Position numbers and translations under genes: made by a program. From NCBI GenBank assembly GCA_043811375.1, contig JBDRNJ010000066.1:1-13070 (forward strand): a stretch of DNA of 13,070 bases, given 5' to 3'. How positions within the stretch are numbered: position 1 is the stretch's first letter; every line of letters starts with the position of its first letter. Shown here piece after piece: positions 31 to 13,070 of this stretch. The notes under the pieces were generated by a model, which saw only the letters and a list, made by a program, of their open reading frames with translations, did no database searches and was not told the origin of the DNA. The stretch comes from a bacterium. GTDB taxonomy: Bacteria; Zixibacteria; MSB-5A5; GN15; FEB-12.

Positions 31-137
31 GAATCCAGTAACCTATTGATATATATAGTTTCCTGCTTACGCAGGAATGACAGAAAAAGCAAGGTAGTAA
101 CATTCATGTCTTTCATTCGGTGTTTTTCAACACCCTG
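31..137. mobile_element. Right half of a MITE-like element: GAATCCAG remnant, spacer, REP-like hairpin arm (60-81), 15-bp TIR (123-137), then CTAA (138-141)
   Basis: 123-137 TTTTTCAACACCCTG is the exact reverse complement of 12861-12875. The reverse complement of 60-81 (GTCATTCCTGCGTAAGCAGGAA) matches 12909-12930 at 21/22 positions. Confidence 0.75.
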
Positions 138-6763: not shown

Positions 6764-6784
6764 ATCACCTTTGTTTGAAGTTTT

Positions 6785-6811
6785 GTAGGTCGAAACCCCT
6801 GCGGTTTCGAC
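6785..6811 (+). repeat. GTAG-type REP-like hairpin between convergent genes
   Basis: GTAG-GTCGAAACC-CCTGC-GGTTTCGAC, a perfect 9-bp stem. A second, inverted copy lies at 7840-7866. Confidence 0.7.
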
Positions 6812-6824
6812 AGCAGCAAGCCAC

Positions 6825-7811: not shown

Positions 7812-7839
7812 AGTGTCGCACTTATCTCACTCGAAAGAT

Positions 7840-7866
7840 GTCAAAGCCGCAGGGGTTTTGATCTAT
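7840..7866 (-). repeat. Second, inverted copy of the 6785-6811 REP-like hairpin
   Basis: Minus strand ATAGATCAAAACCCCTGCGGCTTTGAC matches GTAGGTCGAAACCCCTGCGGTTTCGAC at 22/27 positions. The CCTGC loop is identical and there is one compensatory G-C to A-T change in the stem. Confidence 0.65.
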
Positions 7867-7975
7867 AACTGCAAGGCCCCCCGATAATTGTCTTACAGGT
7901 AAAAGCGAACAGTTCATCGTACACGTGTCGAGTTTCTCGCAAGGGTGGCAATGCCAAACCCGAATGTGTCCCCCC

Positions 7976-12860: not shown

Positions 12861-12930
12861 CAGGGTGTTGAAAAAGTGTTCTATCATGCTCAATTGCCAA
12901 CACACTTCGTCATTCCTGCGAAAGCAGGAA
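12861..12930. mobile_element. Left half of a MITE-like element: CTAA (12857-12860), 15-bp TIR (12861-12875), REP-like hairpin arm (12909-12930)
   Basis: CAGGGTGTTGAAAAA is a perfect inverted repeat of 123-137. The GTCATTCCTGC-GAAA-GCAGGAA hairpin stops exactly where the IS30 end begins. Confidence 0.75.
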
Positions 12931-13068
12931 GGTGGATTCACATTTGAAGTGCAACATGTTATTCCAAAATATCTCTGCTGGTGTTAGAAAGTCCAGACAT
13001 TTTCGTGGTGTGTTATTGTATGCCTGGATGAGTTCGAGGAAGCGATTGTCGGTGAGGGTGGCCAGGTC
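12910..13068 (-). CDS. IS30-family transposase, C-terminal 52 aa (gene enters from beyond the window end)
   Basis: Manual translation gives DLATLTDNRFLELIQAYNNTPRKCLDFLTPAEIFWNNMLHFKCESTFLLSQE*. This contains the IS30 C-terminal signature N-x-x-PRK-x-L-x-(F/Y)-x-TP-x-E. It is absent from the ORF track because it is partial. Confidence 0.85.
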   Translation of the reverse strand, partial: DLATLTDNRFLELIQAYNNTPRKCLDFLTPAEIFWNNMLHFKCESTFLLSQE

Positions 13069-13070
13069 GG
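12931..13070 (-). mobile_element. IS30-family insertion sequence, right end (IRR about 12931-12956)
   Basis: The transposase C-terminus overlaps a 26-bp imperfect inverted repeat of 5-30. Confidence 0.85.

Follow-up and report, generated by a model that had tools for sequence, protein, structure and literature searches.

IS870 belongs to the IS630 family of insertion sequences (IS), and members of the IS30 family duplicate 2-3 bp of the DNA into which they insert. Stop codons supplied by flanking DNA have been reported for IS870, ISMt1, IS1547, IS1110 and IS1239 (PMC13630536). In IS870 and ISMt1, as at the locus described here, the target supplies the termination codon (CTAG in their case; PMC13630536), although their stop falls within this short target word and the present one 18 bases beyond the IS end. 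IS1239 of Streptococcus pyogenes is an IS30-family member (PMC11602124), which has lost its internal stop through a 1-bp deletion close to the 3′ end, so that the flank makes the C-terminus, as the flank does here; its varied AT-rich sites, ~14-bp repeats and tails of 3-171 bp differ from an element that has a repeat as its target (PMC13630536). An earlier note on this DNA had called a multi-codon tail supplied by the target unusual, a view weakened by IS1239 as a precedent for a flank-made tail, albeit one of variable length (PMC13630536).

REP sequences are the target of IS1397, ISKpn1, ISPsy8, IS621, ISPa11, ISPpu9/10 and ISRm22, which, likewise, insert at a fixed REP position and whose REP can be rebuilt from the flanks (PMC1525189). 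Such targeting was reported in the IS3, IS110, IS4, IS256 and IS5 families, but not in IS30, and no borrowed stop is described in the available text of that work (PMC1525189). Like IS30 of E. coli and ISApl1, the present element encodes one DDE transposase with a helix-turn-helix at its N-terminus, has imperfect inverted repeats of ~26 bp and measures ~1 kb, and the junction promoter described for IS30 resembles the one predicted here (PMC9333248). Their duplications are of 2 bp (PMC9333248, PMC10916398; for ISApl1 this applies to both the repeat and the spacer, PMC10916398) as opposed to 3 bp here. Moreover, the targets of IS30 are hot spots or the ends of IS30 itself, and REP targeting is not described in the text available, in contrast to the REP target found here. 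Sister and distant IS30 relatives stop inside or before the right inverted repeat (IRR), whereas the clade described below stops beyond it.

The locus is at the 3′ end of the window (the whole stretch of DNA analyzed, 13,070 nucleotides; Table 1), of which the last 140 bases hold the 3′ part of a minus-strand transposase gene that ends ...YNNTPRKCLDFLTPAEIFWNNMLHFKCEST-FLLSQE-stop; the window translation of this frame reads ...TPAEIFWNNMLHFKCEST-FLLSQE-stop. Both the six tail codons and the TGA lie outside the IRR. Translation and an independently set boundary confirmed the earlier reading that the frame is stop-free inside the IS and through the IRR to 12931. Replacement of the T of the TGA by C gives CGA, a common variant of the repeat. 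No promoter or terminator match was found near the tail. A misread frame was ruled out, as the TPxE motif fixes the frame, and a larger IS that includes the hairpin was rejected.

Table 1. Coordinates of the features at both ends of the window.
Feature	Position	Strand	Remarks
IS30-family insertion sequence, 3′ end	12931..13070	-	Contig breaks inside; full copy of 1034 bp at G000:C64:37623-38656
Right inverted repeat (IRR), 26 bp	12931..12956	-	In-frame LHFKCEST, stop-free; usual IS30 stop (VALxx-stop) in another frame
Predicted -35 hexamer within IRR	12948-12943	-	Part of predicted junction promoter
3-bp target duplication, first target-encoded codon (Phe)	12928..12930	-	Same triplet at 31-33
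Six target-encoded codons, FLLSQE	12913..12930	-	From hairpin stem-loop
TGA stop from repeat	12910..12912	-	First stem base plus two CGTC-tag bases, opposite strand
CGTC-1/NTS-type REP	12908..12930	+	CGTC tag 12908-12911, 8-bp stem, 4-nt loop; insertion severs 3′ tail
Half of ~170-bp MITE-like element carrying repeat dimer	12861..12930	+	15-bp terminal repeat 12861-12875
Left inverted repeat (IRL), copy of same IS at other contig end	5..30	-	Predicted -10 hexamer
Duplication (31-33), tail of interrupted repeat (34-38), second unoccupied hairpin (60-81) and other MITE-like half	31..137	+	Terminal repeat 123-137

The source genome (G000) has nine right and nine left ends of the element, one copy being fully assembled (P0001; 26-bp ends matching at 18/26 positions, 336 residues). 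In 9/9 right ends the IRR is identical to within 0 or 1 mismatch, and the sequences diverge from the very next base. The triplets at left versus right ends were TTC 4 vs. 3 and TCC 3 vs. 4, with CCC and TGC once each, which gives a 3-bp duplication with one discrepancy. A perfect 3-bp duplication was present in 138/178 unique full elements (20 passed a 2-bp test and 1 a 4-bp test), and in the relatives at 67/79 genome loci and 55/72 metagenome loci with both ends. The empty copy of the target, present at G000:C72, agrees with this boundary. Since the copies diverge at one base, carry a 3-bp duplication and have an empty target, the six tail codons and the TGA are target DNA. Thus, the claim that the target supplies the stop stands, with the TGA in the repeat beyond the 3-bp duplication, and the boundary does not lie beyond 12910, as had been considered, but is set by duplication, divergence and the empty site. 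None of the nine right ends has an internal stop. The FLLSQE tail emphasized in the earlier note is present here, but it is one of many: six codons are found in only 7/9 right ends, and the other two tails have 27 and 78 residues.

In the sole fully assembled copy (C64:37623-38656), neither the duplication triplets nor the flank types agree between the two sides, and this copy is likely a recombinant of two copies or an assembly chimera. The window is an entire contig (C66) whose ends are complementary halves, i.e., the left and right MITE-like halves with the same triplet and the same IS direction. Either a 12.8-kb housekeeping segment is flanked by two direct IS copies, or it closes as a circle or tandem unit. 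Another contig (C12) begins with the same end as C66.

The element is an IS30-family member by every feature that could be tested. The full copy scored 246.6 bits against the NCBIfam IS30 transposase model (NF033563, cut-off 80); the 52-residue window fragment, 92% identical to P0001, gave no model match alone. In the full copy, a single ORF, PF13936 (HTH_38) was above and rve below the cut-off. Of the DDE triad, D180 is invariant and D237 and E270 are at least 90% conserved (106 rows), the D-33-E spacing being a mark of IS30. The element measures 1034 bp and its relatives 1031-1052 bp, with imperfect inverted repeats of 26 bp. A stop inside the duplicated word, as in IS870, was not found: the duplicated triplet is itself a sense codon, the first of six, and the stop is 18 bases out.

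A stop beyond the IS is a trait of the whole clade. Of the 120 best homologues listed (of 7,977), 110 have six residues beyond the LHFxCES-type motif (recognized by pattern in 97, and by eye in 13 of the 14 that the pattern missed), and among the best 80 of 564 genome loci (hosts: Chloroflexota, Nitrospirota, Binatota and Ignavibacteriota) 0/79 stop inside the IS and 67/79 stop at +18, both queries including the tail and hence favoring six-residue tails. In a rescan with a query without the last 16 residues, 75/80 loci were scored (contig ends, a rearranged end and a variant IRR accounted for the five left out), of which 0/75 stop inside and 42/75 at +18. With all right ends counted in 30 genomes, TGA occupies +19 to +21 in 150/182, more than expected by chance, and the six-codon tail occurs in 118/178 elements across several phyla. 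The possibility that homologues normally stop inside the IRR and that this copy alone lost its stop failed, with 154/154 scored relatives lacking an internal stop. Most copies sit at one REP position, the REP being rebuilt from the flanks (on target: 9/9 right ends in G000, 68/79 genome loci and 72/75 rescan loci); the terminal codons of relatives mostly map onto the flanking repeat, as had been asked, but the tail is not always six codons. The fixed site and orientation held, 0/178 elements being reversed.

One copy in G091 (L178/L182) has a TAG inside the IRR frame and is also broken elsewhere (a split match with a stop). In the plasmid collection no match of at least 60% identity was found among the 5,000 best records, and viral contigs gave no IRR match; both results would fit a chromosomal repeat as target.

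The target has a CGTC tag, an 8-bp stem starting with AT, a 4-nt loop and a CCA-type tail (as at 34-38), and occurs as a dimer. Its architecture is that of the CGTC-1 family (PMC3733652), and it also fits the NTS consensus (PMC11893778). The remaining hairpin arm folds with z = -4.1. There were 23 exact empty copies of the repeat in G000 versus 0 in the control, and such copies were present in 30/30 genomes tested. The GAATGAC at 75-81 is a hairpin arm, as the earlier note had it, but belongs to the second, unoccupied hairpin of the dimer and is not the partner arm of this insertion. A small GIY-YIG gene (~96 codons, PF01541 match at G000:C72:211274-211498) lies between two inverted copies of the target-type repeat, at 211207 and 211522, in the NTS-ssn-NTS layout, and would encode an Ssn-type nuclease. 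The repeat dRS3, with which the NTS repeats are grouped, is a known integration target of filamentous phages. In the available text of PMC11893778 and PMC9778887 no IS30 insertion into NTS or dRS3 is described, the main text of the former does not mention IS30, and the only links reported between the CGTC repeats and other genes for transposases are "a few fortuitous associations" (PMC3733652).

A MITE-like element of ~170 bp, with terminal repeats of 15 bp (empty copy at G000:C72:157881-158050), contains the repeat dimer, and its right half adjoins 6/9 IS right ends in G000. An IS with ends similar to those of the MITE-like element begins at G000:C80, C8 and C89; this IS, whose transposase we take to be IS5-like, may mobilize the MITE-like element. 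Two further repeat families are present in the window at 182-251, 6783-6812 and 7839-7868, with ~15 genome matches to the arm 182-208 and ~20 to 6783-6812 (reversed controls, 0).

Conservation in the target is highest where the TGA lies. In 130 sites rebuilt from perfect duplications, G was found at +20 in 128, A at +21 in 125, A at +18 in 122 and C at +22 in 111, while +19 was T in 92 and C in 33, and it is probably this part that the transposase reads. At sites with perfect duplications but at most 4/7 stem pairs, and thus lacking the hairpin, GA at +20/+21 was kept in 5/9 unselected cases, as opposed to the expected 1 in 16. Only this count is unbiased: with hand-picked sites it becomes 10/14 and is partly circular, 5/14 off-target sites coming from 20 hand-picked regions, nearly all taken from lists requiring A at +21. 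These counts point to a transposase that recognizes the tag from a set distance, which would make the stop codon a part of its address. The helix-turn-helix of IS30 is reported to bind target DNA (PMC1525189).

The clade inserts into CGTC-1/NTS hairpin repeats at a single base and in a single orientation. According to the mechanism we propose, this would come about with the transposase probably reading the repeat tag A-Y-G-A-C (+18 to +22) as a ruler and cutting 18 bases away. As 18 bases are six codons and the tag holds TGA, a short tail would come free for most copies, and a frameshift could persist because most copies gain this short tail from the tag spacing. The tail residues themselves are probably unstructured and dispensable. 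Transposition would proceed through a circle as in IS30, whose IRR-IRL junction with a 3-bp spacer would form a promoter. The predicted junction with such a spacer has a 17-bp -35/-10 spacing and leaves a tail of 59-60 residues in 141/151 elements; by analogy with the junction promoter of IS30 (PMC9333248), the long-tailed transposase made from the circle should be active. The earlier expectation that off-target or circular forms would get other tails appears right. No circle or dimer junction was found in four runs of assembled contigs with ~93%-identical relatives, where contigs drop rare forms and the result is no evidence of absence, nor in viral contigs or 27 genomes. Positions 3-5 of the IRL (window 28-26, minus strand) are TAG, TAA or TGA in 141/151 elements, which fits the start of the -10 hexamer; with a circle spacer of 1 or 4 bp, these bases would terminate the frame immediately.

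How the stop left the element can be read from the IRR, whose third reading frame gives VALQx-stop. In a sister element (L173; Bradyrhizobium plasmid, ~50% identity, degraded) a nearly identical IRR is read as VALQT-stop. The distance from TPxE to the IRR, 23 nt in this sister, is 16 nt in 151 and 13 nt in 36 of the 187 clade ends. Of 97 representatives with the C-terminal motif, 30 were shifted, 21 ended in VALxx and 46 were classed as other, a group that contains CCT-type ends (third frame) as well as some members of both classes that had been missed. In distant IS30 proteins, each of the three IRR frames is used for the end. A quick tree with the tails excluded, which does not resolve the base of the clade, grouped 38/43 shifted rows together (branch support 97), nested in a larger branch that also holds VALxx relatives (support 99). 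To judge from these comparisons, the stop likely left the IRR-stopping frame through a single ancient frameshift of one base net, similar to that published for IS1239 (PMC13630536). For the target habit of the sister clade, only the one degraded element (L173) was found, and its flanks contain no repeat; viral contigs added none. A distant IS30 protein on another branch (P0200, 38% identity) also ends in LHFKC, perhaps through an independent shift into the same frame.

An important question is whether the borrowed stop does anything for the element. We consider it probable that it is a tolerated by-product of precise targeting and not a check on it. Among the homologues listed, the 110 proteins have 67 different six-residue tails, whose residues covary as DNA base pairs (F/E, S/G and C/A; P/R, L/Q and R/P), so the tails follow the pairing of the DNA stem. 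The T of the TGA covaries with its stem partner across the IS (A/T 95, G/C 30, G/T 15, A/C 3). The earlier note had proposed that only the exact site gives a defined C-terminus; that a working C-terminus depends on this site is not supported: 30/72 on-target metagenome copies are in CGA repeats, with fresh, perfect duplications in 28/30 and with tails that range from 8 residues to more than 123 (in 3 copies the contig ends before the frame does). In the LHFE/LHFD subclade, 26/39 copies are in such repeats with long tails. The 23 intact ORFs tested among long-tailed CGA copies comprised 17 sequence types with a median dN/dS of 0.21, which shows a living lineage, not that the long-tailed copies are the active ones; they may be dead ends moved in trans. 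Identical transposase cores occur with different tails, of 8 and 68 or of 2 and 6 residues. Also against an exact-site requirement is the G098 relative (L177, L181, L184-L186, L188-L191; 62-66% identity), which uses another CGTC-type repeat at a shifted position, with an apparently longer stem and loop; 7/9 copies run only two codons into this repeat before a TGA or TAA of the loop ends the frame. In the structure model, pLDDT is ~95 to about residue 320, then 56 and 50 over residues 321-336.

A second explanation, possible though rather unlikely and compatible with the by-product reading, is that the IRR-read extension LHFxCES became a useful part of the protein, e.g., in binding of the target or the ends, with the tail downstream irrelevant. 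It would fit the variable tails, and the last helix of the model is predicted to run to residue 328, although model confidence over the residues of the extension is low. The frame has been kept through in-frame indels, with linkers of 4, 5, 6, 7 or 8 codons in proteins (counted with a motif that sees only this frame; unfiltered DNA shows two spacings), and there is no reversion to the VALxx-stop frame in 187 clade ends; one frameshifted protein was seen (P0167). Such retention suggests that the C-terminal frame matters, but it comes from few independent indel events, and the constraint on the IRR as DNA accounts for the conservation of the extension.

The same retention has been set on the side of a further explanation, a softened form of the idea in the earlier note, which we regard as doubtful, namely that the stop in the target is kept by selection as an address check. 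Copies in the right repeat would make a short, stable transposase, and off-target copies, perhaps also the circle, would make degraded or weaker long-tailed forms, so that the element would spread only from safe sites. In its favor are the TGA at +19 in 150/182 ends and the fact that this shifted frame, unlike the other one, runs into a stop in the repeat; the G098 relative, on a different repeat type, again stops early, and off-target sites with perfect duplications often still yield tails of 4-8 residues (8/9 unselected). In G167, 12/12 copies are in TGA-type repeats, with empty TGA and CGA repeats available at 53 vs. 52 (binomial p ~9e-4), the two types also differing in their stems. On the other hand, DNA recognition alone can give a site preference, the LHFE/LHFD copies sit largely in CGA repeats with long tails, as described, and integration is expected from the circle, whose transposase would have the 59-60-residue tail. 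Moreover, IS1239 copies with 3-171 bp of added flank are numerous and transcribed (PMC13630536). In G160, 2/2 ends are in CGA sites; genomes with only long-tailed copies were not found beyond it, and no whole genome of the CGA-rich subclade was found among 201 genomes of one phylum or in viral contigs. Of the regulatory or selective role suggested earlier, the checkpoint has weak support, and a softer role, which may exist, has in its favor the frame retention and the TGA-site preference of G167.

Unlikely, too, is the far-reaching version in which a multi-phylum IS30 clade would use its target-finding word as the stop of its own gene, held in frame by selection, as an address check combined with a stage switch in which the short tail would serve excision and the long one integration. 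Correct insertion would then complete the gene, and the proteins made off target or from the circle would differ in tail and, with it, in stability or activity. Finally, an artifact, with the IS boundary misplaced or the stop lost by mutation in this copy alone, can practically be dismissed: only 140 bp of the copy are in the window, and 40/178 full elements, including the C64 copy, lack a perfect duplication, but the divergence at the same base, the empty sites, the 3-bp duplication in the other 138 and a frame common to all scored relatives from several phyla speak against it.

Target-supplied stops and REP targeting have each been published, and their combination was not found in the literature searched; no paper was found there on an IS30 clade targeting these repeats with a fixed tail, though an annotation may exist. 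With this clade, the IS30 family joins the REP-targeting insertion sequences, and the CGTC-1/NTS repeats, reported without associated transposases, gain a widespread dedicated invader. Annotation pipelines will overcall the IS end and the protein C-terminus of such elements. Inserting in a single orientation at a single base, which apparently lies 18 bases from a short tag, the 336-residue DDE protein amounts to a compact site-specific integrase. With the natural series of tails (2, 6 and 8-123+ residues, and ~59 predicted on the circle), it can be tested directly whether a target regulates stop-less transposase genes, an old question.
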